From the NCBI GenBank assembly GCA_017608025.1, contig JAFCGM010000002.1:6250-70249 (forward strand): a DNA stretch of 64,000 bases, in the 5' to 3' direction. The notes beneath the pieces were generated by a model. That model saw only the letters and a program-made list of their open reading frames with translations. It did no database searches and was not told the origin of the DNA. Shown here piece by piece: positions 628 to 47,019 of this stretch. The translations under genes and the position numbers were made by a program. Within the stretch, counting starts at the first letter, position 1. Each line of letters opens with the position of its first letter. The stretch comes from Candidatus Pacearchaeota archaeon. Lineage in GTDB: Archaea; Nanobdellota; Nanobdellia; UBA10117; JABICX01.

Positions 628-686
628 CTGCCTTTTTCAAAAAAAGGCAAGGTGCTAAAAATTCTCGCTTCGCTCGAAAAAAGCAT
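626..686. repeat. Family-B hairpin element
   Basis: ctgcctttttcaaaaaaaggcaaggtgctaaaaattctcgcttcgctcgaaaaaagc. Related copies at 917-951, 12520-12568, 12618-12668 and 28832-28888 (reverse). Confidence 0.7.
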
Positions 687-1026
687 TTAGGAATACAAAC
701 AGTTTTTAGAGGAATTTGTAGTTAAAATCCTTCCAGGCTCGCTTGCCTGCAAAATCAGGCAGCACTTTAGTCGTATAGAGCTTCGCTGCATATAACTTTT
801 TTCTTTGGGCAAATTACTTTTTCTTTTTTAGAATGCGTAGCCGCCTTAGGCTCTGCCTTAATGGAGGTTCTTTTCCAAAGAAAGTCTAAAGAAAAGGCAA
901 AAGACCTTGAACTTGCTCTGCCTTTTTCAAAAAAAGGCAAGGTGCTAAAAAGCCATTTTGGAAAAAGCGCAAGCAGAAAAACAGGTTAATCTTGCTGAGC
1001 AGGAGTCTCTTCGCCAAAAGAACTAA

Positions 1027-1160
1027 TAGCCCCATCCGGATTTGAACCGGAGTCTCAGGCTTTCTTCGAAATCCTCCCAACCAGTTTAGTGGCTGGAAGA
1101 CCCTTTTTGAAAGGGATTTCCTCCAAAGGCCTGAATGATTGGCCGCTACACTATGGGGCT
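1027..1160 (-). tRNA. tRNA-Gln(TTG) with ~60-nt intron in anticodon loop
   Basis: Acceptor AGCCCCA/TGGGGCT. Anticodon stem CAGGC/GCCTG with loop CTTTGGA. T-arm TCCGG-TTCAAAT-CCGGA. Intron lies 3' of position 37. Confidence 0.65.
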
Positions 1161-4031: not shown

Positions 4032-4452
4032 TGTACTTTGCTCCAAGTCTCTTTGAAATGTCCTCAACAGTAACTATCTTTGAGCGAGTGATTTTTTCCT
4101 TTGAAATCTCAGGGAAAGAAACCATTTCCGAGTTTTTAAGATTTTCTGGAACACCAATATGGCATTTTATTCTCTTGTACGCTTCCTGTCCTCTTTGCTT
4201 CTTAAAAGGAAGCATTGGCCTTATAACTCTTTTAACAAACCGGTCTGGCATTCTTGTTGTAAATGGACCATGAAAGGGATTTCTCTTTCGTTTCAAATCC
4301 AAATACTTGTGACAAACTTTGCTCTTTTCTCCAGTAAAAACAGCTTTTTCGCAATTCACAATTTCTATGTTTTCTCCTGCAAGAGCTAGCTTTGCAACTC
4401 TGGTTGCAAGCCTTCCTAAAATTAATCCTGTTGCGTCAATTACTTTTGCCAT
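4024..4452 (-). CDS. rpl13: Ribosomal protein L13 (uL13)
   Basis: MAKVIDATGLILGRLAT... conserved uL13 N-terminus. Confidence 0.85.
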   Translation of the reverse strand: MAKVIDATGLILGRLATRVAKLALAGENIEIVNCEKAVFTGEKSKVCHKYLDLKRKRNPFHGPFTTRMPDRFVKRVIRPMLPFKKQRGQEAYKRIKCHIGVPENLKNSEMVSFPEISKEKITRSKIVTVEDISKRLGAKYNE

Positions 4453-4811
4453 TAGCCAAATATCCTTATTTTATTTCCTTTTGGATTTGATTTTATTGCC
4501 TCTTCAATTGTCTGCACTTTTGAATTTGCTGATTTTATTTTTTTCAGAGCAGTTTCTGAAGCACTTATTGGTATAATTGTAACTTTCTTTTCAAGCTTTC
4601 CTCCACCAGCAAGAAGCTTTCCTAGAATAAGGAGAGTTTCTCCGTCTTTTGCAAAAGAATTTATTTTTGTGAAATTGACAATTCTCTGATTTTTTCTAGA
4701 CCTTTCAAGCTCTTCTGCAATCCTTTTCCAAATCGGAGCCTTGTTTTTTGCTGCCTGAGACTTAAGACTAGATATAAGATTCCTGGTCTGTTCTTTTGCG
4801 AGTGTTTTCAT
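4452..4811 (-). CDS. rpl18e: Ribosomal protein L18e (eL18)
   Basis: Family-typical sequence and position in the L18e-L13-S9-RpoN cluster. Confidence 0.75.
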   Translation of the reverse strand: MKTLAKEQTRNLISSLKSQAAKNKAPIWKRIAEELERSRKNQRIVNFTKINSFAKDGETLLILGKLLAGGGKLEKKVTIIPISASETALKKIKSANSKVQTIEEAIKSNPKGNKIRIFG

Positions 4812-4980
4812 TTTTTCTTGATTAATCTTCTTTTTTGAAAAGAAGATTATGCGGAGAGGAGGATTGTGTAACCCTGGGAATCCCCTTTCAAAAAGGGTCT
4901 TCCAACCTTCAAACGCATTGTGGATTGTTTTCTTGATTAATCTTCTTTTTTGAAAAGAAGATTATGCGGAGAGGAGGATT
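4812..4980. repeat. 53-bp direct repeat containing the tRNA-Leu 3' end and its downstream hairpin, flanking a 62-bp insert
   Basis: ttttcttgattaatcttcttttttgaaaagaagattatgcggagaggaggatt at 4812-4864 and 4928-4980. The insert carries the ccctttcaaaaagggtcttccaacc motif. Confidence 0.85.
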
Positions 4981-5048
4981 TGAACCCCCGTAGGCACTAA
5001 GCCATACGGTTCTTAGCCGTACCCGTTTGACCGCTCCGGCATCTCCGC
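4965..5048 (-). tRNA. tRNA-Leu (class II, long variable arm); anticodon reads AAG at standard positions
   Basis: Acceptor GCGGAGA/TCTCCGC+A. 3-bp D-stem. Anticodon stem TACGG/CCGTA with loop CTAAGAA. Variable arm TGGCTTAGTGCC. T-loop TTCAAAT. Confidence 0.7.
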
Positions 5049-5100
5049 GGAAACTTTTAGAAAAAGTTTCATCAAAAAGAAACTTCTTCATTAAAGAGTA

Positions 5101-5892
5101 TTATTTTAGTTTTGCGGAGTTTATTTCTTTTATAATTAATTCCTGGGATTTTTTCAGCAGCTCTTTTGGTGAAAGCTGACCCCAAGACTCTATCGTCATA
5201 ACAAACTCTGACTCACTGTCATTTACATTTATTCCGTCATACTTGTCTGCAACATACTTCACTTGCTCTGACGCAAGCTCTTCTTTAAGAAGTATTTCCT
5301 TATCAACTTCAAGTTTTCCAGAGTTTTCAATTATTACGCCGCTTGAGCATGCTTCAAGTATTTGTTTTTTGTTTTTTAATGCTTTTTTCTGGTCAATTTT
5401 TACTTCTGGCTTGTTAATGTAATATACAAGAGCTGGGCTCCATTTCATGTGCTCTTTCCCTTTTCCAAGAACTGCAACTGCTTCAAACACAATTTCCTGG
5501 TTTTTACCAAGCTTTGTAATGAGCATATTTGGATAAATTGGTTTTATTTTTGGGTCTGTTGTTTTTAAGTCCTTTGCATAGAATGTTCCTGGACCTTTTA
5601 AGGATGCAGACAATTTTACCTGGCATTTTGCACAGCCCTTTCCCTTGCATTTGCATGCTTCTGGCTGATTATATGTTATGATATCTGTTGACAATGGAAT
5701 AAGTCCAAGACGTTGAGCAATAATCTCATCATAAAGAGGTGATGTATTTTTTGTGAAATAAACATCTTCAATTGCCATTACTGGAACATTAAACATAATT
5801 GTTCTTCTAATGAAGTTCATTTCTGTGTGATTGGAATCTTCAAAAAGAAATTTAACTACATTGTCTTTTTCATCAATTATTTTATATTTCAT
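5101..5892 (-). CDS. rpoD: DNA-directed RNA polymerase subunit D (Rpb3-like) with Cys-rich cluster domain
   Basis: Rpb3/RpoA fold with a CKCKGKGCAKC cluster. Start taken at MKYKII. Sits in the conserved S13-S4-S11-RpoD order. Confidence 0.8.
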   Translation of the reverse strand: MKYKIIDEKDNVVKFLFEDSNHTEMNFIRRTIMFNVPVMAIEDVYFTKNTSPLYDEIIAQRLGLIPLSTDIITYNQPEACKCKGKGCAKCQVKLSASLKGPGTFYAKDLKTTDPKIKPIYPNMLITKLGKNQEIVFEAVAVLGKGKEHMKWSPALVYYINKPEVKIDQKKALKNKKQILEACSSGVIIENSGKLEVDKEILLKEELASEQVKYVADKYDGINVNDSESEFVMTIESWGQLSPKELLKKSQELIIKEINSAKLK

Positions 5893-5893
5893 T

Positions 5894-6286
5894 TTAAGGT
5901 CTCCTTCCCCGTCTTCCGCCTTTTTTTCTGCAACCGCCATGAGGAATTGGGGTAACATCTTCTATACTTCTTATTTTAAGGCCGGCTCTTGCAAGTGCTC
6001 TTATTGCGGGTTGTGCTCCAGGACCAGGGTATTTTGCTCCGTTTTGTCCGCCTTTTGCCCGAACCTTAACATGAACTTCTTTAATGCCTTTTTCAATGGC
6101 ATCCAAGGCAGCTCTTTTTGCGCAAAGCATTGCTGCTGTTGGACTTGGTTTAAGACGGTCTGACTTTACAACCTGACCGCCAGATGAAAGAGCAATTGTT
6201 TCAGAACCACTCAGATCTGTAATATGAATTATTGAATTATTATATGATGAGTAAATATGGGCTACGCCCATTTTCTGATTAGCCAT
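5894..6286 (-). CDS. rps11: Ribosomal protein S11 (uS11)
   Basis: [18 protein letters not shown]... and PHGGCR uS11 signature. Confidence 0.9.
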
Positions 6287-6821: not shown

Positions 6822-6843
6822 TTTTTATCTCCTGTTTTTAAGT

Positions 6844-7326
6844 TTACTTTTTCTTGCTTACTCCAACAGTTTTTCCTTTTCCTCTTCCTGTGCCTCTGGT
6901 TCTTTGACCTCTTGCTTTTACTTTAAGGCCTTTGTCTCCGCGAGAATGCCTATATCCGCGAAAACTCTTTATTTTCTTTAAGAATTGAATATCAAATTTT
7001 TTAGTTAAATCAAGGTCTGAAGAAATAAGGTGTCTGTCTTTTCCTGTGTCCATATCCTTTCTCCGATTCAAAAGCCATTTTGGCAATTCCTGGTTTTCAA
7101 TTCCTCGAATTGTTTCTTCTATTTTTTTTATTTCCTCTGGAGTAAAATAACCGACTTTCCTTGACTTATCAATCTCCAGAATCTTGCAGACTGCATTAGA
7201 AATCATATAACCGCAACCCTTTATTTGAGCAATTGAATTGTAAATTGAAGAAGAACCCTTAATATCTCTATCCAAAATTCTAACTAGCTCCCTAAATTCT
7301 TCCTTGGGTTGAGTTTGTTCAGCCAT
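6844..7326 (-). CDS. rps13: Ribosomal protein S13 (uS13)
   Basis: DIKGSSSIYNSIAQIKGCG motif with a basic GRGKGKT C-terminus. Start taken at MAEQTQ. Confidence 0.85.
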   Translation of the reverse strand: MAEQTQPKEEFRELVRILDRDIKGSSSIYNSIAQIKGCGYMISNAVCKILEIDKSRKVGYFTPEEIKKIEETIRGIENQELPKWLLNRRKDMDTGKDRHLISSDLDLTKKFDIQFLKKIKSFRGYRHSRGDKGLKVKARGQRTRGTGRGKGKTVGVSKKK

Positions 7327-7430: not shown

Positions 7431-7710
7431 TAATATTTTTTGTTAATGTGTTGTGTTTATAAAGGTTTCCTTATTTTTTTAGAAAAAGGCAGATTGCCAA
7501 AAATTTGCTCTCTGAGCAAAAATATTTTTTTGACAATTTATAGTGCACAATCGCCTGCTGAAAGCTATTGCTCAAATATATATTTTTTCGCTCCCTACAT
7601 TCTACGCAATTATTCTCATTTTTTCTTTTTGGGCAACTTATAGTGTTTTTTTCTTTAAAAAAGAAAAACCCGCGCTAAAAAGAAACTACTTTTCTAAAAA
7701 GAAATGGCAG

Positions 7711-7794
7711 CGCCAGCGGCAGGATTCGAACCTGCAAGTCCCGAAGGACACGAGGTCTCAAGCCTCGCGCAATACCAGGTTATGCGACACTGGC
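7711..7794 (-). tRNA. tRNA-Ser(TGA)
   Basis: Anticodon stem-loop CGAGG-CTTGAGA-CCTCG. Long variable arm. T-arm GCAGG-TTCGAAT-CCTGC. Acceptor GCCAGTG/CGCTGGC. Confidence 0.85.
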
Positions 7795-10729: not shown

Positions 10730-10808
10730 TTTGAAGTGAAAACCTTTTCAAAAGGACATTAATTTCTTTTGGCAACTTACCTTTTCTTTTCTAAAGAAAA
10801 GGCAGAGA

Positions 10809-11396
10809 TCATTTAAAATAAATTCGATTAATTACAATATCTTCAATCGGCCAGTCTAAATAATATCCCTTGCTTGTTGTAGTTGAATTCTCAATTTCAT
10901 CAACAACATCCATACCGTCAATTACTCTTCCAAAAACAGCGTAACCTGGATTTTCAGGAGATTGGTAATCTAAAAAAAGGTTGTCTGCAGTGTTTATGAA
11001 AAACTGGGATGTTGCAGAATTAGGATCATTTGTTCTTGCCATTGAAATTGTTCCTAGAACATTGCTTAAGCCATTGTTTGACTCAAGTTTAATTGGATCC
11101 TTTGTTTCTTTCTGTACTCCGTTTGGCGTAAAACCGCCCCCCTGAATCATAAATCCAGAAATGACTCTATGAAATATAAGTCCTTCATAAAACCCTGAAT
11201 TAACATACTCTTCAAAATTCTGCACAGTTATCGGCGCTTCTTTTGGATAAAGTTCAAGTTCAATATTGCCCTTTGTTGTTTCAATAACTGCAATCTTAGT
11301 GTCACTAGTCCTAAAAAGAATAACTAATGAAATAGCAAACAATAATACTAAAAACGCTACTGCAGAATAAGCTAAATATTTATCTATCTTTTTCAT
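10809..11396 (-). CDS. Cyclophilin-type peptidyl-prolyl cis-trans isomerase, membrane-anchored
   Basis: FHRVISGFMIQGGGF and SMARTNDPNSATSQFFI cyclophilin signatures. N-terminal TM helix. Confidence 0.85.
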   Translation of the reverse strand: MKKIDKYLAYSAVAFLVLLFAISLVILFRTSDTKIAVIETTKGNIELELYPKEAPITVQNFEEYVNSGFYEGLIFHRVISGFMIQGGGFTPNGVQKETKDPIKLESNNGLSNVLGTISMARTNDPNSATSQFFINTADNLFLDYQSPENPGYAVFGRVIDGMDVVDEIENSTTTSKGYYLDWPIEDIVINRIYFK

Positions 11397-12514: not shown

Positions 12515-12690
12515 TATCTTTTCAAAAAAGCTCCGCAAAATTCTCGCTTTGCTCGAAATTGAGAAAGATTAGTCTCGGTGCATGATTTTTTTGAGAGCAG
12601 TTTACTTGTCATGGAGCTTTTCAAAAAAGCTCCGCAAAATTCTCGCTTTGCTCGAAATTGAGAAAGATTAGTCTCGGTGCATGATTAAGC
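12515..12690. repeat. Two tandem ~97-bp units, each a family-B hairpin element plus a copy of the last 20-31 bp of secY
   Basis: ...gagcttttcaaaaaagctccgcaaaattctcgctttgctcgaaattgagaaag + attagtctcggtgcatgatttttttgagagcag. The genuine secY 3' end is at 12780-12812. Confidence 0.8.
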
Positions 12691-12779
12691 TTTTTTTAGA
12701 AAAAAGCTTGCAAAAAACAAAAAAATAGTTTTTCTTTGGGAAACTTACACTTTCTTTTTTCTAAAAAGAAAGGGGAGAG

Positions 12780-14171
12780 TTAGTCTCGGTGCATGATTTT
12801 TTTGAGAGCAGGATACATGTCAAATGCATGGTATTTTGCAATTTCCTCATAAAGCTTGTAAATAATCATAACTGTAAGTAAAATTCCTGTTCCACGACTC
12901 AATGCTCCGGAAATGTCTGCTAATGCTGCAAGGAAACCGACAAGCGCTCCACCCATTACAGTTAAAGCAGGAATGTATCTGTTGAGAATTGATTCAAGAA
13001 CGCGAGGGTCTCTCCTAAATCCTGGGATTTGCAATCCAGATGATAGAATTTGCTTTGCCTGAGCATCTGCGCCCATATTGGATGTCTTTACCCAAAGTAT
13101 TGAGAAGATAATTGCGCCAACAACCATAATTGAAATGTAAACCACTGTTTGCAGAATTATTTCTCCTGTTGCTGTGCCTGAAACAATTGAACGAATTATA
13201 TCTGGAGAATGAACCCATTTTACAATTCCAGAAGTTGGTGTTGAACCTTCAAAAGTTCCAAAAATCGGCATTCCTAAATTTTGGAAAAGTCTAGCAAGTA
13301 GCTGTATGTTTGCCAGCAAAGCAGCAATAAGAATAACGGGAATATTAGAACTGTAAATAAATCTTAATGGCCAGCGCATTCCATATCCGCGCACTCGGCC
13401 AAAAGAAAGTGGTATTTCAACTTTCATTGCCTGACCATAAACTGCAATTAAAAACACAACAATTGTCGCTACAATTGCTATTAAAGCAATTAATGCACCA
13501 AGAGAATCTCCCATTCCAAGGGCTTTGAAAATGTAAGGGATTTTTCCTGCAGGAATGTTTGGATTTGTTGGTGATGGCAAAGGATTAAATGCTGCAATGA
13601 AAATCTGTCGAGCAACTCCTCCTGCAATAAACAAGCTTACTCCTGATCCGAAACCCCATTTTTGAACAACCTCATCTAACAAAACTAAAAGGTAACCTCC
13701 AATAATTAGCTGTCCTACTAATCCGAGCTGAAGCCAAAGATACTGACTTGTTCCTGCAAGCTCTGCAGCAGGGGCGAGTCCACCCATAAAAACATAAATA
13801 ACAGCTTCTAAAATTATAAAGCCGATTGTGAAAACTTTTTGCATAGCCTGGAATTTCTTCTTTCCTTCCATAGTTGTAAGGTCTATATTTATTAATCCAG
13901 AACCAGCAAGAAGCTGAAGAATAATAGATGCTGTTACAATAGGACCAATACCTAAAGAAACTATTGAACCAAAACTTGCTCCAAGAATAATTGAAAGAGA
14001 TTCAAATTGAGAAAGAGCGTTTTGTCCAAGGCCTTGAAGAGGGATGTGAAGCAAAACAAAATAGAGTACTAAAACCCCTGCAGTCCATTTAAGCTTTGTT
14101 TTAAAACCAAGCTTTTTTGTCTTTGGGGAAACTATTTCAGGCAAAAATGAGTTTATTAGCTTCCAATTCAT
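12780..14171 (-). CDS. secY: Preprotein translocase subunit SecY
   Basis: 10-TM SecY/Sec61-alpha sequence. Last gene of the spc-like operon. Confidence 0.95.
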   Translation of the reverse strand: MNWKLINSFLPEIVSPKTKKLGFKTKLKWTAGVLVLYFVLLHIPLQGLGQNALSQFESLSIILGASFGSIVSLGIGPIVTASIILQLLAGSGLINIDLTTMEGKKKFQAMQKVFTIGFIILEAVIYVFMGGLAPAAELAGTSQYLWLQLGLVGQLIIGGYLLVLLDEVVQKWGFGSGVSLFIAGGVARQIFIAAFNPLPSPTNPNIPAGKIPYIFKALGMGDSLGALIALIAIVATIVVFLIAVYGQAMKVEIPLSFGRVRGYGMRWPLRFIYSSNIPVILIAALLANIQLLARLFQNLGMPIFGTFEGSTPTSGIVKWVHSPDIIRSIVSGTATGEIILQTVVYISIMVVGAIIFSILWVKTSNMGADAQAKQILSSGLQIPGFRRDPRVLESILNRYIPALTVMGGALVGFLAALADISGALSRGTGILLTVMIIYKLYEEIAKYHAFDMYPALKKIMHRD

Positions 14172-16840: not shown

Positions 16841-17619
16841 TTCTTATTATTCTCCTTTTTGCTATCTTGTGTTTTTGGTTTGTTTTTTGTTTCAGGCTTT
16901 TTTGATTCTGATTCTTTAGTTTGTTTGTTTTCTTTGTTAGGGGCGGTTTCTTTTGCTACAGTCCTTCTGCTGAAGGGACCCACAGCAGTGCTATCTTCGC
17001 CTGGCTCGATATCACTTTTATTTTCTTTGTTAGGGGCGGTTTCTTTTGCTGCTTTTTTTATTTTGGACAAAATCTCCTGCTTTTTCTTTTCATCAATTTT
17101 TTTCTTCTTTTTAATATCTGCAACTTCCTTGTCTTTTTTCTTCAGCTCTTCTTGTCTCTTTTTTTTCTTTTCTGCTTTTTCTTTTTTCTGCTTCTTTCTT
17201 TTTTCATAAGACTCTTTTATTTTCCTTATTTCAGAGTCAAGGTTTCTTATGTTTGAAAATGATATTTTTTTGCTTTTTGCTTTTTCGAGAATTTCAAGGC
17301 GTTTCTTGCTTCCTATTTTTGAAGACAAAATTGCGAAATTTTTCTCTGGATTGAAGTTTTTTAAATCATTGTGATTTTCAACTCTAAAAGGAGTTTTTCC
17401 TTCTTCATTTGCATGCCTTAGAATTGAAATTGTTTTGAATCCAATTGAAACCATCTTTGGTTTTCCTCGTCTTCTAAGCCTTAATTTTGACTGAACTCCG
17501 CGAGGCTTTCTCCACTTTGTTCCAAGCCGTTTTCTCCTGTGAGATTCCTGCCTTTTGAATTCTGGCATTTTCTTTTTTATTTTTTTCTTCTGCTTGGAAA
17601 GTTCTTTTAATGATTTCAT
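16837..17619 (-). CDS. rpl32e: Ribosomal protein L32e (eL32) with ~140-aa K/E-rich C-terminal tail carrying an in-frame repeat-element insertion
   Basis: eL32 core (RRKRLGTKWRKPRG...) followed by a low-complexity tail. Tail contains ...EDSTAVGPFSRRT... flanked by an exact 30-bp duplication. Confidence 0.85.
   Translation of the reverse strand: MKSLKELSKQKKKIKKKMPEFKRQESHRRKRLGTKWRKPRGVQSKLRLRRRGKPKMVSIGFKTISILRHANEEGKTPFRVENHNDLKNFNPEKNFAILSSKIGSKKRLEILEKAKSKKISFSNIRNLDSEIRKIKESYEKRKKQKKEKAEKKKKRQEELKKKDKEVADIKKKKKIDEKKKQEILSKIKKAAKETAPNKENKSDIEPGEDSTAVGPFSRRTVAKETAPNKENKQTKESESKKPETKNKPKTQDSKKENNKK
16958..17020 (-). repeat. Family-A short element (63 bp), in frame inside the eL32 tail
   Basis: gtccttCTGCTGaagggacccaCAGCAGtgctatcttcgcctggctcgatatcac, flanked by exact 30-bp direct repeats (16928-16957 / 17021-17050). 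Confidence 0.85.
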
Positions 17620-19992: not shown

Positions 19993-20515
19993 TGTTTTTT
20001 CCTCCTTTTGAATCAGTTTTTACTGGCTTTATTGTTTTTGTTGATGATTTTTCAATTGCTTGCTTTCTTGTCCTTCCAGCGAAGGGACCCACGCTGGCGC
20101 TATCTTCGCCTTTGGCTCGATAGCTCTTAGATTGTGATGATTTTTCAATTGCTTGCTTTCTCTTCTTGTCAGATAAATCAATATCAATTATTTGAACATT
20201 TGAAGGAGATATTGGGTATTTAATTACTCGGCCTTCTTCTTTTTTGAATTCTGCTTTTCTGACAAAGATTTTGCTCTTTTTTAGAGACACTTTTTCAACT
20301 TCTCCAATCAATCCTTTGAATTGGCCTCTAAGGATTTTTACCTTGTCTTTAACTCGAATTGGAATGTTTCTTGTATTGTATTTTTTTCGCAAATCTTTTG
20401 AAAGTAAAGCAGACATAAACTTTCTTTTTACATGAAGCGGAGAATTGAATCGATATTTCCTCTGCTTTCTAGGCTGTTTGCTTGACTTCCATTTTTTAGA
20501 CCAAAGAGTTTTCAT
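19985..20515 (-). CDS. rpl24: Ribosomal protein L24 (uL24, KOW) with C-terminal tail carrying an in-frame repeat-element insertion
   Basis: KOW motif KVKILRGQFKG. Tail contains ...EDSASVGPFAGRT... flanked by an exact 27-bp duplication. Start taken at MKTLW. Confidence 0.85.
   Translation of the reverse strand: MKTLWSKKWKSSKQPRKQRKYRFNSPLHVKRKFMSALLSKDLRKKYNTRNIPIRVKDKVKILRGQFKGLIGEVEKVSLKKSKIFVRKAEFKKEEGRVIKYPISPSNVQIIDIDLSDKKRKQAIEKSSQSKSYRAKGEDSASVGPFAGRTRKQAIEKSSTKTIKPVKTDSKGGKNNE
20069..20134 (-). repeat. Family-A short element (66 bp), in frame inside the uL24 tail
   Basis: gtccttCCAGCGaagggacccaCGCTGGcgctatcttcgcctttggctcgatagc, flanked by exact 27-bp direct repeats (20042-20068 / 20135-20161). 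Confidence 0.85.
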
Positions 20516-24099: not shown

Positions 24100-24180
24100 T
24101 GTCCTTCTAACAAGTTCTTTGTTTGCTAGCCTCCATTATTATTTTTCTATTTATCATTTTTTTACTTGCCGCGTCCTGCT

Positions 24181-24240
24181 CCCTTTTCTTTAGAAAAGAA
24201 AAGGTAAGTTTCCAAAAGAAACTTTTTTGAGCATTGTTAT
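24181..24240. repeat. Family-E palindromic element inserted between L2 and S19 with ~30-bp target duplication
   Basis: cccttttctttagaaaagaaaaggtaagtttccaaaagaaac, flanked by tatcatttttttacttgccgcgtcctg at 24151-24177 and 24243-24269. Confidence 0.75.
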
Positions 24241-24251
24241 CTATCATTTTT

Positions 24252-24965
24252 TTACTTGCCGCGTCCTGATTTTTTAGCTGAAAGCATTCCAACTTTCTGT
24301 CCTGGTGAACGTCCTTTTCTTCTTACAGTTGTTGATGTAGGTCTGTGCCTTCTGTGCGTTCCACCGTGTGGGTGGTCAACTGCGTTCATTGCAACTCCTT
24401 TTACTTTTGAAACAAGCTTGTTTTTTGCTTTTCTTTTGTGGTATGAGTTTCCAGCCTTTATTAAAGGCTTGTTTTTAACTCCAACTCCTGCAACTACTCC
24501 AAGAGATGCATAGCATTCTGGATTTAGTTTTATTTGCCTTTTTGAAGGCATCTTAATTACAATATTTTTCTTTTCTTTTGCAACCAATATTCCAGAAGCT
24601 CCTGCTGCTCTCAAAAGCTTTCCATTTTGTCCTGGAACTTTTTCTATGTTGAAAACTCTTGCTCCGATAGGAATGTCTTTCAAAGCAATTGCATTTCCAA
24701 CTGAAGAGTCTTTTCCTCCATAAAAAACTGTTTGTCCAACTTTGATTCCCATTGGTGCTGGAAGCAAACACATTTGATCATCTTCATATTTTACTATCAT
24801 TAGTGGAGCTGAGTGTCCTACAGAGTTTACAATATCAATAACCTCCCCCTGAAGTATTTCTTTGGACTTAATTGGGTAACGAATTTCTCCAAAATAACGG
24901 TGGCTTGGAGACTTATATCTAGGTGAGCCTTTTCCTCTTCTTTGCGTAATAAGCCTTTTTCCCAT
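24252..24965 (-). CDS. rpl2: Ribosomal protein L2 (uL2)
   Basis: uL2 sequence with a GGTHRRHRP-type C-terminus. Start taken at MGKRLITQRRGKG. The 11 upstream codons in the ORF track are the repeat element. Confidence 0.9.
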   Translation of the reverse strand: MGKRLITQRRGKGSPRYKSPSHRYFGEIRYPIKSKEILQGEVIDIVNSVGHSAPLMIVKYEDDQMCLLPAPMGIKVGQTVFYGGKDSSVGNAIALKDIPIGARVFNIEKVPGQNGKLLRAAGASGILVAKEKKNIVIKMPSKRQIKLNPECYASLGVVAGVGVKNKPLIKAGNSYHKRKAKNKLVSKVKGVAMNAVDHPHGGTHRRHRPTSTTVRRKGRSPGQKVGMLSAKKSGRGK

Positions 24966-25074
24966 GTCCTTCTCGCGAAGGGACCCACTCAGCCGCAAAA
25001 TCGGCTGGCGCTTTCATCAGGCAGATGTTGGTCTGATGCCTGATAGCGCGAAAGTTCCTTAGTTTTTTGCCTCC
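24966..25074 (-). repeat. Family-A long element (A6, 109 bp) between L23 and L2, abutting the L2 ATG
   Basis: GGAGGcaaaaaaCTAAGGAACTTTCGCGCTATCaggcatcagaccaacatctgcctgatgaaagcgccagccgATTTTGcggctgagtGGGTCCCTTCgcgaGAAGGAC then ATG. Confidence 0.85.
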
Positions 25075-28396: not shown

Positions 28397-28562
28397 GGTT
28401 TTCCTAAAAAGCCTATTCTAATTTAAAAGTGTTTCTATAGAAAAAAATAGAACACTAACTATAATATGTAAAAAAAGTAAGTATCACAAATTGTCAAATC
28501 CATAATTATATCTGCTACAGGATTTATTTTACTTTAAAAAGTGTTTGTATTCCCAAAGCTTT

Positions 28563-28656
28563 CTTAGAAAGAAAGCTTGCAAAGAACAACATTTTTCTTA
28601 GAAAGAAAGCTTGCAAAGAACAACATTTTTCTTAGAAAGAAAGCTTGCAAAAAATT
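28563..28656. repeat. Tandem repeat, 34-bp unit x ~2.8, each unit a palindrome (gctttctt-aga-aagaaagc)
   Basis: cttagaaagaaagcttgcaaagaacaacattttt repeated head-to-tail. Confidence 0.85.
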
Positions 28657-28661
28657 GAAAT

Positions 28662-28714
28662 TTTAGAAAAAGCGGCTAGGACTACATCTAAGGCGGCTAC
28701 GCCTTCTGCGGAAA
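28662..28714 (-). ncRNA. Candidate small RNA or conserved intergenic element, family D copy 1
   Basis: Near-identical 53-bp copy of 32318-32370: tttagaaaaagcggctaggactRcRtctaaggcggctacgccttctgcggaaa. Minus-sense would end in T5. Confidence 0.3.
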
Positions 28715-28889
28715 AATAGCTCTTTTTCTTTTCGAGAACATTTTCTTTTTCAAAAGAAAAGGTTCAAGCGAGCCCGGAGGGATTCGATTACCTCGGCAAA
28801 CCCTTTAAAAAAGTGTTTGCATTCCCAAATGTTTTTTTCGAGCGAAGCGAGACTTTTTAGCAACTTGCCTTTTTTTGAAAAAGGCAGAG

Positions 28890-29052
28890 CGAGCCCGGAG
28901 GGATTCGAACCCTCGATCTACAGCTAACTCCAGCACATTAAAGTCTTTTAGCTTATCTTTGCAGGCATCGCATTTTGTTTGCCTGCTCAAAGCGCCAGCC
29001 AATTTTGCGGCTGTAGGAGGCTGTCGCCCTATCCAGACTAGGCTACGGGCCC
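28890..29052 (-). tRNA. tRNA-Arg(CCT) with 88-nt intron at 37/38; the intron carries a family-A repeat module
   Basis: Acceptor GGGCCCG/CGGGCTC. Anticodon stem ACAGC/GCTGT with loop CTCCTA^A. T-arm GAGGG-TTCGAAT-CCCTC. Intron contains CAGCCG-CAAAAT-TGGCTG plus a long stem. Confidence 0.65.
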
Positions 29053-29585
29053 AGTTAAAGAAAACTGCAATATCTTAATAAAACTTGCCAATTCACTACC
29101 GAAATTCTTTAATCTATGTGTTTCTATAAAATTAACATGAAAAACAAACATAGATTAATTGCTTTCTTTTTAGTACTTGTTTTTGTAGTAAGCTTCTTGT
29201 TTTTTGGAAGGATTTTCAGCATAATAGATTCTCTTTCTGATTTAACAGGCGCGGAAATTCTAAAGACTCCAGAAGAAAAGTCAGAAGAATACTCATCTGT
29301 CTGCGAGCAGAAAGACTTTTCAAAAAATTATCGCGACTGTATTTACTGGGAACAGGAAGGGGAAAAACAAGATTCTCTTTCAAAGCTTTCAGACGAAGCA
29401 GTGGAATCTTTTTGCAAAGAGCTATTTAGAATTTACAAAACTTGCGAATAGAAACATTTTTAACTGATATTTTGGGTTTAACTCATATCAGATTTGCTCT
29501 GAGCTAACTTTCGACTGTTGAACAGCAGCGGGATGTCTTTGCCAGCGCTTTTCTGAAAAGAGATATGCATCATGATCTAATGCTC

Positions 29586-29678
29586 CTTCTCGTGAAGGGA
29601 GTTACATGCGGCTGCAAAATCAGCCGGCACTTTCATCAGGCAACAAAGTACGATGCCTGATTGTGATTCACGAACACA
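29586..29678 (-). repeat. Family-A structured repeat element (copy A7), directly 5' of tRNA-Gly
   Basis: tccttctcgtgaaggga...gcggctg-CAAAAT-cagccg...ttcacgaa. Flanked by a duplicated ~20-bp tRNA-Gly 5' segment (29565-29585 / 29680-29700). Confidence 0.7.
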
Positions 29679-29753: not shown

Positions 29754-30221
29754 TTTTTTGTGATTTCAAAAATCAGCAAAATTCATTAGAAAAAATTTCA
29801 TTAAAAAAGCAGTAGCGCCTGAGAAGATTTGAACAGAACCCCTTTAAAAAAGGGTCTTCCAACCCCAAAAACTGATTGAAGCTAAAAAAGCAAGATTAAA
29901 AAGTGTGATTTTGTTTTTTCTTAATCTAAAACTGAGTTCATTATCTTTTCAAGTTGTAAAATCATGACTGGGTTGAGGTCCTTCTTCAATGTATAGTCTT
30001 ATCATTTCATCTTGTGATTTTTTAATTAAATTAAAGAGTTTATTATTTTTCTCATAGATATTATTTTGTTTTAATTCTATAAACGAATGTGTTATATAAA
30101 GTTTAAAAAGTTAATTAAATTATATAAAAAAGAATCTTTTTAAAATATCTAAACAATACTTGCATTCCAAATATTGTTTTTCTTTGGGCAACTTGCACTT
30201 TCTTTTTCTAAAAGAAAGGGC

Positions 30222-30340
30222 AGCGCCTGGGGAGATTTGAACTCCCGACATCTTGCTTTCTCGTTTTTTCTGTTAATATTTTTGCGCGAAGCAGAAACGA
30301 GTTACGAGGCAAGCGCTCTACCAGACTGAGCTACAGACGC
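30222..30340 (-). tRNA. tRNA-Thr(CGT) with ~46-nt intron
   Basis: Acceptor GCGTCTG/CAGGCGC. D-arm GCTC-AGTCTGGTA-GAGC. Anticodon stem CTTGC/GCAAG with loop CTCGTAA. T-arm GGGAG-TTCAAAT-CTCCC. Confidence 0.75.
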
Positions 30341-32317: not shown

Positions 32318-32370
32318 TTTTTAGAAAAAGCGGCTAGGACTGCGTCTAAGGCGGCTACGCCTTCTGCGGA
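32318..32370 (-). ncRNA. Candidate small RNA or conserved element, family D copy 2
   Basis: Second copy of the family-D 53-mer, directly after the 5S terminator. Followed by the palindrome gaaacttttggaaaaagtttc also found at the tRNA-Leu 5' flank. Confidence 0.3.
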
Positions 32371-32459
32371 AACTTTTGGAAAAAGTTTCATCAAAAACAG
32401 AATCATATTTTTACATTATCTCTTTTCCATATTGATTTTAGTTAAGATTCTTTAGTGCA

Positions 32460-35894: not shown

Positions 35895-36842
35895 TTATTT
35901 TTTCAGCATTTTCTTTTTTCTTATTCTTCTATAAATGAAGAATCCTGTTACTGCAATTACTGCAAACAAAAAATATATTCCATATGGCGCTGGTTTTTGG
36001 GCTAAACCATATTTGTATAGGTCTTTCTGAGAATACACGCGAATATCTATTGTCTGCTCATCCATGTAACTTCTACTGTTTGCATCAGTATATTCAAGTG
36101 TAAATGGAAGAGTTATTATTTTAGTTTCAGGATTTTTTGAATCTGATTTAAAATAAATGTCAAAAACTGCAGTTTCAAAATCATCTGACTCAAGTTCGCC
36201 AACATAAACTTCGTGCGGTGAAAGAACAATGTATTCATCTGTTTCATCAAGTGTTATTGTCAGGTATTTTGTATTTAGTGAGCCTTTATTTACAATGTTT
36301 GTTGTAATTCTTGATTTCTTGTTAAATGATACAGAATCCAAATCTTCAATTCCCACATCAACCCTTGGCTCTCCACCAGTTTTCACTGTTATTGTCACAG
36401 ATGTTTTTTTCATTTCTTTTTCACATTCGCTGTCGCTACATGAAATAAATTCAAGAGAATAATCTCCTGCTTTTGTGTTCTCATTTACAAAAAGCCTGTA
36501 ATCAAGAAGCTTATTCGAATTTGTTCCGATGATTCCTGTGCTTTTTATTGAATCTTCTCCCGGAACAAGGGAAAACGGATATTCTGGATTTACTTTTATG
36601 TATGCATTATCCAATTGCTCATTTCCAATATTCTGGACAGATATCCAAACGCGCAGAGTGTTGTCTGGCTCAGCAGGAACTGGGTCGTAGTCCTTAAGCA
36701 CAACCTTAACATCTGCATTTTCAGCTACAAGGGCCATTGCCGCAAACGGAACTATTACTAAAATTGTAAAAAGTGCGAAAAGCACTTTAATTGCTTTTTT
36801 CATTTTCAACTCTCCCATCTTTAAGATAAAACACTTTCTCAT
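35895..36842 (-). CDS. Exported protein with C-terminal membrane anchor (ABC-transporter-associated)
   Basis: Signal-like N-terminus, beta-rich body, C-terminal TM helix plus RRIRKKK. Co-transcribed with the permease and ATPase. Confidence 0.4.
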   Translation of the reverse strand: MRKCFILKMGELKMKKAIKVLFALFTILVIVPFAAMALVAENADVKVVLKDYDPVPAEPDNTLRVWISVQNIGNEQLDNAYIKVNPEYPFSLVPGEDSIKSTGIIGTNSNKLLDYRLFVNENTKAGDYSLEFISCSDSECEKEMKKTSVTITVKTGGEPRVDVGIEDLDSVSFNKKSRITTNIVNKGSLNTKYLTITLDETDEYIVLSPHEVYVGELESDDFETAVFDIYFKSDSKNPETKIITLPFTLEYTDANSRSYMDEQTIDIRVYSQKDLYKYGLAQKPAPYGIYFLFAVIAVTGFFIYRRIRKKKMLKK

Positions 36843-39009
36843 CTCGAGCTAATTTTTCGAAACGAGAATCGTGAGTTACGATTATTAATGTCTTATTTTT
36901 GTTTTTCCACAAATCAATTAAAATCTTCACAATCTTTTTTCCTGTTTTTGAATCAAGATTTCCTGTTGGCTCATCAGCAAGAATTATTTCTGGATCGTTT
37001 GCAAGAGAGCGGGCAATTGCAACTCTTTGTTGCTCTCCGCCAGACATTTCAGAAGGAAGATGATTTTTTCTGTGCTCAAGGCCAACTATATCCAAAAGCT
37101 CTGATGCTCTTTTAATTCGCTCTTCTTTAGATATATTCTGAAAGACCATTGTAAGAGCAACATTTTCAATTGCAGTAAGGCTTTGAATCAAGTTGAATTT
37201 CTGAAATACAAATCCTATTTTGCTTCCACGAATTTGTGCAAGCTCTGACTCTTCAAGAGAGGAAATGTCTTTTCCATTAAGATATATTTTGCCTTTTGTT
37301 GGAACATCAAGGCATCCAATCATGTTCATTGCTGTAGAATTATGAACAATAAACTCATTTGCTATAAAATTATCTGCACCAGGAACAGTTATGTCATAAA
37401 CTGTTGTCTTTTTATTTATTTTTTTGACTGCAATAACCTTATCCCAAAAAATATCTGAGTCGATTAACGCAGAAAGTTTATCTGTATTGATTTTGTTTTC
37501 TGAAAGAAGATTATTAATCAATTTTAATTTATTCACTGAAGGATTAATTCTTTTAGACTCATATGGATTAAGAACTTTATGAATTCTTCTTGATACTTTT
37601 ACTTTAGACTCTCTTCTAACTTTCTGTAATAATTCTCCACAAGGAATTACATCTACATTCGTATTCTCTTTGTTTTTTAAGTGGCTAAGAAGCCTTTTTT
37701 TCTTATCTGATGAAATAAAGCCAATGTGCTTCTCATACAATTTAAGATTGTTCAATCCAGAAATAGATAATAAATAATAAAATCTATTTGTTTTTTTATT
37801 AAATTTTTTGGGGAGTCTAGAAACAATTCCATACCTCAGAAGCAAATAATTTAATTGAGTGATAAGGTCTTTGCTTGCAAGAGTTATTGCTACTTCTTTT
37901 TTGTTTTTTGAAACATAACCATCACAATCAAACAATGCCCTAATAAAAGCAGCAATTTCTTTGTTAGAACATCTAAAAACAAATTCCGGCAGTTTTATTT
38001 TTCTTGATTTAAGATTTAGAGGAAAATTAAATATTTTATTGAAAAAAATAAGTAAGACCTTATTATTAACAGCTAATCTTGTATCCATAAATTTTTTTGC
38101 ATCAACTTCAAAAATTCGATTTACTAAATAAGAAAATCTCTCATTTATTTTTGGGTCTAAATTTGTAAATTTTATTCCATCCTTATCTAAATTTCCATCT
38201 CCTGCAATAAAGCCATATAGCTCCATTAAATCTTTAGAAATCTTTTTCGGCATTCTTACTTTATTGTGCGAACCTGCAGGAGTTATATAAAAATTACACT
38301 TATATTCAGAAATATCTGTACCACAGTAATCCATAATTTTCTTAAAATTCTCCAATGAAATATTATTATTATGTTTCCAAGCATCATAACTAAAGTAATT
38401 AAATTTCAGTTTCTTGCATAATTCCTTTCCAGAAATCTTTGAATTTTTGAGAAGTTTTCGGATTAATTTGCTTGAATCAAAGAGATATAATCTTTTGTTT
38501 GCACTTGCAAGTTTTAGCAAATCAATTTCTTGTTTTTTTGGTTTTGTATTTATTTTTCTTGCTGTGGCAACAAAAATTCCTTTTTTAAGATTTGTTGCGC
38601 GAATTTCACTGAAGCCATTAGAATCTAAAGTGAAAAAGGGATGTTCTGGAGTACTTACTATTTTTTTGCCTGAAGAAGTTGTAATTTCATAAATCTGATT
38701 CGCTTCTCGTTTATAAAAATCAGAGACTCTGAAAGGTTTAATTTTATTGGATTTTCTATCTAATGCAAGAACTTTATATTTCTTATATTTTCTTTCAAAA
38801 TCTTTTAGATTTATTAAAGAGCCATCTTCCAAAAACAATTTAGTGTCTCCAGTAAGGCATTTTCCACTGCCTGATGGGCCCATTATAACAACAAAATCTC
38901 CTTGATTTACTTTAAGGCTTAGGCCTCGGAGTGCTGGAACTTCCACTGCACCCATTTTATAAATCTTCCAAGCATCTTTGATTTTAATAAGTGTTTTTGA
39001 GGAAGTCAT
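36787..39009 (-). CDS. ABC transporter ATP-binding protein (MacB/LolD-type) interrupted by a 507-aa intein
   Basis: Extein N-part ends GPSGSGK, then intein CLTGDTK...IVHN, then extein resumes [16 protein letters not shown]-like SGGEQQR, Walker B ILADEPT and H-loop all present. Confidence 0.85.
37339..38859 (-). other. Intein with LAGLIDADG homing-endonuclease domain, inserted in the Walker A P-loop (GSGK^ST)
   Basis: Block A Cys1 (CLTGDTKL), LAGLIDADG pair [11 protein letters not shown] / [12 protein letters not shown], terminal HN followed by +1 Ser. Confidence 0.8.
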
Positions 39010-46860: not shown

Positions 46861-46914
46861 TACACAATAACCTCGATTATTACTCTTATTAATGAGTAAT
46901 GTATGTACCAGTCC

Positions 46915-46980: not shown

Positions 46981-47019
46981 ATTATTACTCTTGTTAATGA
47001 GTAATGTATGTACCAGTCC

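Follow-up and report, generated by a model that had tools for sequence, protein, structure and literature searches.

Partial duplications of tRNA genes are usually read as the scars of integrated viruses or plasmids. In archaeal tRNA genes, the anticodon-loop/T-arm region serves as an integration site for elements that carry a tyrosine integrase (PMC4090602), and tRNA fragments that stem from the integration of integrase elements have been documented (PMC4090602, PMC9897764, PMC3293823). Casposons duplicate 14-35 bp at the 3′-distal part of the tRNA-Leu and aEF-2 genes, and their gene-less remnants, solo terminal inverted repeats, persist at the target sites (PMC4779613). Position 59/60 in the T-loop is a known site of archaeal tRNA introns (PMC4090602), direct repeats have been reported near splice sites (PMC11782384), and published models tie mobile-element insertion to intron gain and to scattered tRNA fragments in archaea (PMC3293823, PMC11782384). 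In Nanoarchaeum, isoacceptors are known to share 3′ halves (PMC4090602, PMC3218864).

Here, we analyzed a 64-kb stretch of archaeal DNA (the window) in which the signature of a partial tRNA duplication encloses only approximately 100 nt of structured, promoter-like repeat, at three tRNAs and, at one locus, in two lineages with only approximately 70% protein identity. The structure at the tRNA-Leu gene looks like a miniature tRNA-targeting insertion, and it may bear on how archaeal tRNA introns arise.

Results

Exact duplication of the tRNA-Leu 3′ end

The window carries an intact tRNA-Leu(AAG) gene on the minus strand (4965-5048; placed by ARAGORN and by Rfam RF00005 with 53.5 bits), which sits between rpoD (5101-5958) and rpl18e (4452-4811, minus strand; assigned from the ORF list and from synteny and Pfam matches in relatives). 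The latter is the first gene of the L18e-L13-S9-RpoN cluster and lies downstream of the duplication. A repeat search of the window detected an exact 53-nt direct repeat on the minus strand at 4813-4865 and 4928-4980, with a spacing of 115 nt. The tRNA-proximal copy, X1 (4928-4980), which also coincides with the inverted repeat I5, contains the real tRNA 3′ end, and the distal copy, X2 (4813-4865), ends 1 nt short of the L18e ATG at 4811. An earlier note on this DNA had described a 53-bp duplication around a 62-bp insert and taken the copy at 4928-4980 for the real 3′ end. The duplication is indeed exact, with the first copy one base away from the position then given (4812-4864), and the ARAGORN and Rfam placements bear out the assignment of the 3′ end.

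The repeat comprises tRNA positions 58-73 (16 nt, from the T-loop to the discriminator) and a 37-nt hairpin trailer. In X1, these parts occupy 4965-4980 and 4928-4964, respectively, with the hairpin arms at 4938-4949 and 4953-4964; in X2, the displaced copy of the tRNA-Leu 3′ end lies at 4850-4865, and the same hairpin is found at 4823-4834/4838-4849. Insert Y (4866-4927, minus strand), 62 nt without an ORF, separates the two copies and reads caatccacaatgcgtttgaag-GTTGGAAGACCCTTTTTGAAAGGGGATTCC-cagggttacac in the minus sense. It harbors a palindromic hairpin of motif subfamily A (4877-4903, minus strand; GGAA-GA-CCCTTT-TTG-AAAGGG-GA-TTCC), defined by motif matches, folding, pair counts and promoter comparison, with a T5 run in the tRNA sense. 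A simple tandem duplication was rejected, as the insert could not be aligned by hand to the tRNA body upstream of the repeat. Removing the 115 nt as in a BHB intron would give a canonical tRNA, a result that is uninformative because both tail copies are identical.

The same layout at other tRNAs and at protein-gene ends

The earlier note singled out tRNA-Leu, but the arrangement is not peculiar to it. At tRNA-Arg(CCT), the repeat search (D19) revealed a repeat-insert-repeat structure at 28767-28908 on the minus strand, in which an exact 21-nt copy of the T-loop-to-3′ segment (position 55 to +2) recurs 100 nt downstream (X1, 28888-28908, TCGAATCCCTCCGGGCTCGCT; X2, 28767-28787). Its 100-nt insert (28788-28887) contains a hairpin, AAGTTGCTAAAAAG, TCTCGCTTCGCTCGA and a motif hairpin of subfamily B (28796-28820), and a dispersed module also lies inside the tRNA-Arg intron. 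A diverged (84%) copy of the Arg insert together with an Arg-like 3′ fragment (723-743) is located on the plus strand at 628-745, with no tRNA upstream, and a partial copy related to this unit lies at 912-952.

The tRNA-Thr(CGT) gene (30222-30340, minus strand; ARAGORN) is directly followed on the same strand by a repeat architecture at 29814-30221. Its noncoding insert of 388 nt, which separates the gene from the downstream tail fragment, begins with a generic hairpin+AAGTTGCCCAAAG module and ends with the motif (29839-29864), after which comes a Thr-like 3′ fragment (29814-29833) that matches the tRNA-Thr 3′ end (positions 54-73) at 18/20 nt, with 2 mismatches. Across Leu, Arg and Thr, the repeats start at T-loop position 54-58 and end at discriminator +0 to +2. 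Protein-gene ends in this genome show the same repeat-insert-repeat order, with repeats of 16-53 nt and inserts of 55-100 nt; the repeats at the ends of tRNA-Leu, tRNA-Arg, tRNA-Thr, SecY and L2 measure 16-31 nt, and the repeat lengths across the genome range from 11 to 53 nt.

The tRNA-Gln(UUG) gene (1027-1160, minus strand; ARAGORN -i, with the anticodon mislabeled, and Rfam, 45.3 bits) has a 61-nt intron (1062-1122, minus strand), whose BHB and repeat were read by hand, alongside a fold. The motif copy at 1094-1115 sits in a 35-nt block (1081-1115) of this intron, flanked by the imperfect direct repeat TTGGAGGAAAT (1116-1126)/TTGGGAGGATTT (1069-1080). Subtracting the module leaves a plausible minimal BHB intron of 14 nt.

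The inserts (62/99, 100 and 388 nt) contained no ORF of at least 40 aa besides one spurious overlap, and they matched no Rfam family even at a permissive threshold. Pfam comparison of approximately 30 ORFs from the window yielded no candidate enzyme, be it an integrase, Cas1 or a reverse transcriptase; the sole mobile genes were a DDE transposase and an intein, both unrelated to the duplication. The inserts showed no clear terminal inverted repeats, and their only end-to-end resemblance lies in the T/A-run hairpins at both ends. An Rfam search of the window at E<=0.5 found no partial or 5′ tRNA pieces.

The motif and its hairpin modules

The motif CCCTTTCAAAAAGGGTCTTCCA occurs at 1094-1115 (minus strand), 4883-4904 (plus strand) and 29840-29861 (plus strand, 1 mismatch), that is, at three sites against zero expected and zero matches in 100 dinucleotide shuffles. 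Within the tRNA-Gln intron, it runs in the tRNA sense, and the Leu and Thr copies are antisense to their tRNAs. These are the three sites that the earlier note had reported and held unlikely to be random AT-rich matches; the motif is present in the tRNA-Gln intron, at 1094-1115 rather than 1096-1120, and beside the Thr-like fragment, which spans 29814-29833 and not 29816-29840. The Leu and Thr copies share 25/26 nt (4882-4907 vs. 29839-29864), and beyond this 26-nt core there is little conservation among the Leu, Thr and Gln copies.

A palindromic module of approximately 45 nt precedes each tRNA-tail copy (Leu, Arg and Thr). The motif module is present six times in the window and once in the relative L015. 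Four of the six are complete and intergenic, each 6-17 nt upstream of a tRNA 3′-end copy; the remaining two are the tRNA-Gln intron copy and a half-site upstream of TFS. The insert ends are conserved across different tRNAs, and the flanking repeats vary with the target. The left end consists of a CTSCCYTTTYC-hairpin; at the right end, (C/G)AGG(G)T(T)AA(AC) comes after the motif hairpin. A generic left-hand module (hairpin plus AAGTTKCC(C)AAAAGAAA) has at least nine copies in both orientations, several of which are flanked by direct repeats of 20-31 nt that cover the SecY and L2 ends. From an explicit alignment and pair count of the six motif copies, 84% of the cells in the motif hairpin were paired and two pairs were changed on both sides, and the hairpin was preserved with differing outer stems.

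Exact-pattern scans with TGGAAGACCCTTTNNNAAAGGG gave 5 matches in a genome collection and 9 in a metagenome collection, all of them unrelated and bacterial; all but two were GC-rich, and many represented a Thermus-like element. Among viral contigs, the exact pattern of the subfamily-B hairpin had no match and that of subfamily A had one, which we assume to be due to chance. The motif agrees well with the local BRE/TATA promoter (CAAACACTTTTTTAAAG vs. the TFS promoter GAAACACTTTTAAAT; the local consensus is exemplified by gaaacACTTTTAAATTag upstream of TFS), and at most copies downstream genes are absent or far away. An explanation by the general promoter consensus was only half supported: the module, with just 4-6 copies in the window, is no widespread promoter sequence there.

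The rpoD-tRNA-Leu-L18e locus in relatives

In L015, whose RpoD is 70% identical, the rpoD-tRNA-Leu-L18e locus shows the architecture found in the window. Its insert of 97 nt bears a subfamily-B hairpin and is followed by a 17-nt copy of its own tRNA end, and this second copy follows the tRNA variant of L015 (CCTCT vs. CCTCC in the window). L015 and the window agree in the repeat boundary (position 58) and in the GGGTTAMAC junction. L018 lacks the insert, and its tRNA-Leu leads directly to the hairpin that follows the second copy in L015. L018 looks like an empty site; it is no closer to L015 than other lineages are, and the hairpin module could itself be mobile.

Two more distant relatives, L019 and L021, carry in the orthologous tRNA-Leu an intron of 28-29 nt at T-loop position 59/60 with a canonical hBHBh′ structure (UUCA x UGAA, bulges AA|G and AU|U), and ARAGORN accepted the spliced L019 product as tRNA-Leu(GAG). 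The duplication boundary in the window and L015 lies at most 2 nt from this splice site. Sequence comparison detected no homology between the L019 intron and the inserts.

Discussion

Overall, we propose that a gene-less, hairpin-bounded module was inserted duplicatively at the 3′ part of tRNA-Leu and that the tail was kept identical thereafter, an account to which we give an even chance. The exact repeat runs from T-loop position 58 through the tRNA end and the trailer, and the att-like shape pointed out in the earlier note is thus confirmed; the insert, which the note remarked to be only 62 bp, is far too small for a gene-bearing element. The link that it drew to mobile cargo did not hold, since the window contains no linked cargo or recombinase, only the unrelated transposase and intein. 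The duplication has the shape of an integration scar but is not simply a recent one, given that L015 has the structure at the same locus with a copy that tracks its own tRNA. In contrast, the connection with tRNA introns proved stronger than claimed, as the orthologous tRNA-Leu of distant relatives has a BHB intron at 59/60.

The putative mechanism is as follows. A gene-less repeat module of approximately 100 nt, with a T/A-run hairpin on the left and the palindrome of the 27-nt motif on the right, would have come to lie between two tRNA-tail copies, either by inserting itself or as the remnant of a larger integrating element. Recombination would have duplicated the target in an att-like manner or as a long target duplication; precedents may be found in tRNA-integrating elements, whose att block extends from the T-loop to the tRNA 3′ end, and in transposons with long staggered cuts. 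The first tail copy completes the functional tRNA, and the second represents the displaced segment from T-loop position 58 to the discriminator. The insertion would have been tolerated because the proximal copy keeps the tRNA intact. Later, gene conversion or selection may have held the distal copy identical to the tRNA, with a converted tract that would have grown to 53 nt in this genome, against only 17 nt in L015. The motif forms the conserved right-end hairpin of the module and may now serve as terminator-promoter punctuation before the L18e operon. In the inverted orientation, the module would also have landed inside the tRNA-Gln intron, where a short repeat of its own flanks it.

Several observations speak against this account. 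The scan of approximately 30 ORFs yielded no candidate enzyme, clear terminal inverted repeats were not seen, and exact-pattern scans traced the motif to no other public genome, metagenome or viral contig. Repeats of 11-53 nt do not fit a single transposase with a fixed stagger, and so wide a choice of targets is at odds with one site-specific integrase. Moreover, the poor conservation outside the 26-nt core points to a functional core under selection more than to recent transposition, and the Leu-locus architecture, being apparently old and conserved, favors a functional role over a passive scar.

In a rather unlikely alternative, nothing moved. The structure would be a punctuation cassette whose hairpin ends tRNA transcription and whose motif is the BRE/TATA promoter of L18e-L13-S9-RpoN; the tRNA-tail copy and its hairpin would form part of the 5′ UTR, and a useful regulatory unit would have been duplicated and gene-converted to give the Arg and Thr cassettes. 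The left half and loop of the motif do match the promoter consensus upstream of protein genes, a transcription start is predicted near the beginning of the second copy, and T-runs follow every tRNA end and every copy. The retention of the architecture at this locus in L015 and the drift of the flanks around a conserved core agree with such a role as well. However, the Thr site, the copy at 628-745 and the one in the Gln intron have no correctly oriented gene downstream, and the operon is expressed in L017 and L018, where the motif is absent. Additionally, the 5′ UTR would measure approximately 55-90 nt, compared with the short leaders elsewhere in the window. A promoter does not need palindromic covariation, and it leaves unexplained both the tRNA tail after the motif and the repeats at the SecY and L2 ends.

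A bolder reading, which we consider distinctly unlikely, is that these archaea contain a family of tiny (approximately 60-100 nt) gene-less elements that insert at gene 3′ ends and duplicate 16-30 bp of target, with insertions into tRNA loops as possible raw material for BHB introns. At tRNA genes, such elements would enter the T-loop or the anticodon loop, and three stages would then be visible: an intermediate at Leu with its duplicated tail, an element within the Gln intron, and the finished T-loop intron of the relatives. The enzyme could be a casposase-/Cas1-like staggered integrase or a promiscuous integrase that recognizes the T-arm.

A relation to T-loop introns at the RNA level appears improbable. 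The 115 nt between the tails would be a current or recent intron whose true or ancestral 3′ exon is the distal copy, or the structure would be a precursor of such introns. This idea draws on the canonical 59/60 BHB intron in the orthologous tRNA-Leu of L019 and L021, on the proximity of the position-58 boundary to that splice site, and on the modules within the tRNA-Gln intron (where the module has its own flanking repeat and can be subtracted to leave a minimal intron) and the tRNA-Arg intron. We looked for a BHB, in which a 4-bp helix lies between two 3-nt bulges at the splice sites. Immediately ahead of the 3′ bulge, the window has ACAC and L015 has AAAC; neither tetranucleotide can pair with UUCA (54-57), and no inner helix forms in either genome by hand or by folding; with ACAC before the AA|U bulge, hand analysis rejected a T-loop BHB intron in the window. 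Furthermore, splicing is unnecessary because the proximal copy completes the tRNA, the T5/T6 runs in the insert would stop read-through in the tRNA sense, and the intron of L019 lacks detected homology to the inserts.

A small RNA gene under a promoter of its own is a very improbable reading of the distal fragment, whether as a shared 3′ piece for trans-splicing or a tRNA-/tRF-like RNA. Every fragment has a promoter-like motif upstream and a T-run downstream, and the Leu units of the window and L015 can be folded into a three-way junction (z = -3.2 and -5.0), in which UUUGRRGR is predicted to pair with the 3′ acceptor strand beside the motif hairpin and a T-arm-like hairpin. However, these z-scores mainly reflect two strong hairpins, and the Arg unit has no junction (z = -0.5); a tRNA-like three-way junction, seen in the Leu units only, was not adopted. 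The T-loop of each copy is broken by an indel of 2-3 nt. The search for split or permuted tRNA genes that the earlier note had advised gave no support in the window: no 5′ tRNA fragments were found at E<=0.5, and the Leu, Arg and Thr fragments each have, immediately upstream, an intact tRNA of matching identity.

A local accident (slippage, tandem duplication or filler-DNA repair in an AT-rich, hairpin-rich spacer, or an assembly artefact joining strain variants) is the least credible explanation: the window contains many exact tandem duplications with periods of 79-115 nt (D2, D3 and D4), a perfect 53-nt repeat is close to an assembler k-mer size and the contig is metagenome-derived, but the layout is repeat-insert-repeat with a unique insert rather than a tandem unit, the insert and the second copy recur in the independent assembly of a different organism (L015), the repeats of the Arg, Thr, SecY and L2 cases have diverged (84-97% identity), as those of an artefact would not, and the inserts belong to recurrent sequence families.

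The Leu duplication, the T-loop intron of the relatives and the Gln-intron module form a testable series for the origin of noncanonical tRNA introns and scattered tRNA fragments. The tail fragments and modules can also mislead tRNA annotation. In the assembly of one relative, two contigs end inside tRNA genes, one of them in a tRNA-Thr intron; therefore, the modules probably fragment the assemblies of these small genomes.

Comparison with known systems

Integrase att duplications, such as those of SSV fuselloviruses and pNOB8-/pTN3-type plasmids, are similar to our locus in that the repeat reproduces a tRNA gene from a loop down to its 3′ end, and the proximal copy leaves the tRNA functional. 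The arm beside the distal copy also loosely resembles a T-stem and the start of a T-loop, as in core-type integrase sites. In contrast to those duplications, the inserts are only 62-100 nt (388 at Thr) and carry no integrase or cargo, nearly the same insert is found at three tRNAs with similar repeats at protein-gene ends, and the structure is conserved across lineages with approximately 70% protein identity.

Casposons share with the window a long target duplication at the 3′-distal parts of tRNA and protein genes, and the repeat-insert-repeat geometry resembles repeat-spacer-repeat. In this archaeal group, no casposons are known. Unlike casposons, the structures here have a wider range of repeat lengths (11-53 nt), no Cas1 or PolB was seen among the scanned window ORFs, and no terminal inverted repeats were demonstrated.

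Split tRNA 3′ halves, as in Nanoarchaeum equitans and Caldivirga, are likewise free 3′ fragments with a promoter-like element and a structured leader. However, the fragment here covers positions 58-73 only, the intact gene adjoins it, and the search of the window gave no complementary 5′ piece. Archaeal BHB introns at noncanonical positions offer a further parallel, in that the T-loop site is shared and the module also occurs in the bona fide tRNA-Gln intron; unlike these introns, the Leu duplication forms no BHB in the window or L015, and the tRNA is complete without splicing.

REP/MITE-like repeats are, as here, short noncoding hairpins with terminator-like T/A runs, present in many copies at gene 3′ ends and in both orientations. 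The structures of the window differ from them in lacking a short target duplication of fixed length (11-53 nt here) and clear terminal inverted repeats. They are instead modular composites that accompany long duplications of the adjacent gene end and are tied to copies of tRNAs from the T-loop to the 3′ end.

The duplication at tRNA-Leu

An earlier note had reported a 53-bp duplication around a short insert at the tRNA-Leu 3′ end. Our repeat search of the window bore this out, and the reported coordinates were off by no more than a few bases: a perfect 53-nt direct repeat (4813-4865 and 4928-4980, spacing 115) surrounds a 62-nt insert (4927 to 4866, tRNA sense) at tRNA-Leu(AAG) (4965-5048, minus strand; ARAGORN and Rfam). 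The repeat comprises the 3′-terminal 16 nt of the tRNA (AATCCTCCTCTCCGCA, T-loop position 58 to the discriminator) and a 37-nt trailer carrying a 12-bp T/A-run hairpin; past the insert, in tRNA sense, a second copy of both follows, and a single base separates it from the rpl18e ATG (4811). The surrounding gene order, S13-S4-S11-RpoD-tRNA-Leu-L18e-L13-S9-RpoN, is that of the archaeal cluster; G+C content is 33%, and the nearest named RpoD homologs are labeled Candidatus Woesearchaeota; an RpoD of 100% identity is encoded on a 109-kb public contig. The AAG anticodon (A34) is unusual among archaea. The anticodon-loop sequence of this tRNA is identical in the tRNA-Leu of three relatives (L015, L017 and L029); in L018, ARAGORN also called AAG, but the loop sequence differs. 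A hairpin immediately 5′ of tRNA-Leu (5044-5078) is repeated downstream of the 5S rRNA (32363-32397, 94%).

A shared motif and the same layout at other tRNA genes

The motif previously said to link the Leu insert, the tRNA-Gln intron and a third site was recovered as a 22-nt sequence occurring three times in the window, compared with no match in 100 shuffles. The second site (1094-1115) falls in tRNA-Gln(UUG) (c[1027-1160]), inside its 61-nt intron, and the third (29840-29861) abuts a 20-nt fragment (29814-29833) that matches tRNA-Thr(CGT) (c[30222-30340]) at its 3′ end in 18 of 20 nt; that gene lies 388 nt upstream of the fragment on the same strand. The Leu and Thr copies are identical at 25 of 26 nt.

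When the terminal 20 nt of every tRNA was searched against the window, a second exact 3′-end copy was found downstream of tRNA-Arg(CCT). There, a 21-nt direct repeat (TCGAATCCCTCCGGGCTCGCT; 28888-28908 and 28767-28787, minus strand) surrounds a 100-nt insert composed, in order, of a T/A-run hairpin, AAGTTGCTAAAAAG, TCTCGCTTCGCTCGA, CATTTGGGAAT and the 25-nt palindrome GCAAACACTTTTTTAAAGGGTTTGC, which sits just before the distal tail copy and aligns as a second subfamily (B) of the motif. Another copy of this insert (84%) with an Arg-like tail (628-745, plus strand) has no tRNA upstream and directly follows the stop codon of ORF 16-627; 290 nt beyond it lies a partial 41-nt copy (912-952, plus strand, 95%). 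Tail copies extend left into the 5′ strand of the T-stem, with a 2-3-nt indel at T-loop positions 54-57 (for Arg, CGAGGGTTCGAAT versus CGAGGTAATCGAAT). The 5S rRNA 3′ flank (32319-32372) shares 96% identity with 28661-28714, downstream of the tRNA-Arg structure.

The motif module has six copies in the window. A tRNA 3′-end copy begins 6-17 nt downstream of all four complete intergenic ones, and the remaining two are the tRNA-Gln intron copy and a half-site (28532-28549) upstream of TFS. Every copy retains a hairpin or palindrome despite differing outer stems (GGAA/TTCC versus GCAAAC/GTTTGC; A..T in the 628-745 copy). Across the six, pairing is kept in 84% of cells and two pairs show both-sided changes, which, for only six related sequences, is modest evidence. 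Rfam contained no family matching the motif or inserts. The motif's left half, GGTTGGAAGAG, occurs in L029 approximately 40 nt upstream of tRNA-Leu (about 964-974). Thermus or Thermus-like contigs matched by pattern search (L003-L005, L009, L010, L012 and L014) carry a conserved TGGAAGACCCTTTGCAAAAGGG unrelated to the archaeal motif.

Repeat-insert-repeat structures at protein genes

The earlier note remarked that duplicated tRNA 3′ ends normally signal integrase-mediated insertion, and saw a link between tRNA-intron sequences and mobile cargo. This interpretation is supported in part but must be widened. The layout is general in the genome and includes protein-gene ends. Many such structures were returned when the whole window was screened for direct repeats no more than 500 nt apart. 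At the L2 end (24148-24268), a 31-nt repeat that takes in the final 14 nt of the gene, its stop codon and the next 14 nt surrounds a generic module of 59 nt (hairpin plus AAGTTTCC-AAAAGAAA) in inverted orientation; at the SecY end (12668-12800), a 21-nt repeat ending at the stop codon surrounds ~91 nt of the same module family; and elsewhere a 57-nt insert (Y) and a 22-nt repeat (X) are arranged X-Y-X-Y-X. The generic module has at least nine copies and also makes up the left portion of both the Arg and the Thr insert. As a T/A-run hairpin with (T)AAGTTKCC(C)AAAAGAAA, it occurs in both orientations at gene 3′ ends (790-830, 7620-7712, 10763-10809, 12721-12777, 24179-24221, 30178-30224, 49796-49841 and 52335-52463).

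A second repeat family, TATCGAGCC..GGCGAAGATAGC..GTGGGTCCCTTCnnnnGAAGGAC, was found at 16924-17050, 20042-20172 and 46860-47124, and immediately upstream of ATGs at 20925, 24965, 56119 and 46860. Its hairpin adjoins several start codons (those of L2, ThrRS and TatD), and in the L32e and L24 ORFs (Pfam identities) the family builds repeat-insert-repeat units of 93 nt that keep the reading frame within the C-terminal tails. Spacers also contain exact or near-exact tandem repeats: 79 nt in 2.3 copies (52317-52496), a 70-nt unit with a 99-nt period (12518-12686) and 34 nt in three copies (28560-28661).

The rpoD-tRNA-Leu-L18e locus in relatives

The L015 contig (GCA_964558255.1; RpoD identity 70%) is syntenic with the window. 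Its tRNA-Leu is followed by a hairpin, a spacer, a subfamily-B palindrome (GCAAACACTTTTTGAAAGGGTTTGC), AGGGGTTAAAC, a tail copy, a different hairpin and L18e. The distal tail copy (17 nt, AATCCTCTTCTCCGCAC) matches its own tRNA and lies 97 nt downstream, compared with 99 nt in the window. The T-stem reads CCTCC in the window and CCTCT in L015, and both copies agree within each genome; the distal copy is therefore not drifting but either homogenized with the tRNA or under selection for a match to it. Contigs of this assembly end inside tRNA-Gln (L015 7179-7218) and a tRNA-Thr intron (L023 1839-1929), a sign that assemblies may break at repeats lying within or near tRNA genes.

In L018 (64%), no second tail copy was found at the tRNA-Leu locus, and the hairpin module directly after the tRNA is the one that follows the second copy in L015 (~89% over 36 nt); L018 may represent one empty site. 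L017 (67%) has its own, independent 35-nt direct repeat (1028-1062 and 1110-1144), whose first bases are the CGCA of its tRNA-Leu 3′ end. L019 and L021 (about 50%) carry a tRNA-Leu(GAG) with two introns at this locus (L019 10793-10932; L021 about 6825-6965). One of these, 28-29 nt in the T-loop at 59/60, forms a canonical hBHBh′ structure (the T-stem, UUCA x UGAA as the central helix, an inner helix of 8 bp, and the bulges AA↓G and AU↓U), and ARAGORN called tRNA-Leu(GAG) from the L019 gene with both introns removed. The tRNA is absent from this locus in L022.

Origin of the module

The anatomy is that expected of a duplicative insertion sparing the gene. The repeat spans the tRNA from the T-loop to its end or slightly past it, insert ends are conserved while flanking repeats differ by target, there is one possible empty site, and the proximal copy leaves the tRNA intact. 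The Leu architecture is kept across deep divergence, as is a core of 26-40 nt between loci and between genomes, which points to a retained function; the module could act as promoter/terminator punctuation or a protein-binding hairpin. Given this conservation together with the insertion-like anatomy, we therefore favor an insertion-derived module that was subsequently maintained and homogenized, a reading to which we assign about even chances. The main rival, a purely regulatory cassette, appears unlikely to us, and an intron-related reading more doubtful still. Repeat lengths range from 11 to 53 nt, and no clear terminal inverted repeats were found. Among ~30 window ORFs scanned, none encoded an integrase, Cas1 or reverse transcriptase; the only related hits were an ABC ATPase split by an intein that carries a LAGLIDADG endonuclease (36787-39009), a DDE_Tnp_1 (IS4/IS5-type) transposase (41951-42937) and a Holliday-junction resolvase-related endonuclease (45625-46104).

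The left half and loop of the motif resemble the window promoter consensus (A)AAC(A)CTTT(T)WAWA, extracted upstream of protein genes (for example, GAAACACTTTTAAAT, 38 nt upstream of the TFS start), and a predicted transcription start falls near the beginning of the tRNA-tail copy. Two points speak against promoter function: a suitable downstream gene is missing at most motif copies, and the motif contains a T5 or T6 run in tRNA sense, a termination signal in archaea. Within the tRNA-Gln intron, its orientation puts only T3 in sense.

Modeled by hand, the tRNA-Gln intron forms a relaxed bulge-helix-bulge (BHB) in which CUUU x GAAG is the central helix, AA↓A the 3′ bulge and GAAAUCC x GGAUUUC the inner helix, with the motif in its unconstrained interior. 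The motif-bearing 35-nt block is flanked by TTGGAGGAAAT and TTGGGAGGATTT, and its loss together with one repeat would leave AGGATTTCGAAGAA, a plausible minimal intron. A functional T-loop intron at the Leu duplication was rejected, as the BHB test failed in both the window and L015. Separately, 34 nt of the 88-nt tRNA-Arg intron (28980-29013) are 91% like 24990-25023, within a module upstream of the L2 gene (24967-25023) that matches the sequence immediately upstream of tRNA-Gly (29584-29642; 59 nt, 80%).

The suggestion of split or permuted tRNAs was not upheld, since a partial-tRNA search of the window found no partner for a 3′ half and the intact gene adjoins. A tRNA-like three-way junction was predicted for the Leu units only. 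Slippage or an assembly artifact does not agree with the unique insert, with the separately assembled L015 or with repeats elsewhere that have diverged.

Comparison with known integration systems

The importance of an insertion-derived, maintained module would be greater if its mobility or a role in intron birth were demonstrated. In archaea, tyrosine recombinases integrate into tRNA genes in the region of the anticodon loop and T-arm (PMC4090602) and yield tRNA fragments (PMC9897764, PMC3293823). Casposons, through Cas1-type integration, produce 14-35-bp duplications at the 3′-distal part of tRNA-Leu and aEF-2 and leave gene-less solo repeats (PMC4779613). The Leu structure shares the duplication geometry of both and is at most a candidate member of either group. 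Duplication of a tRNA end by insertion is of a known kind; what is new here is its miniature size, its recurrence and conservation, and its link to tRNA introns.
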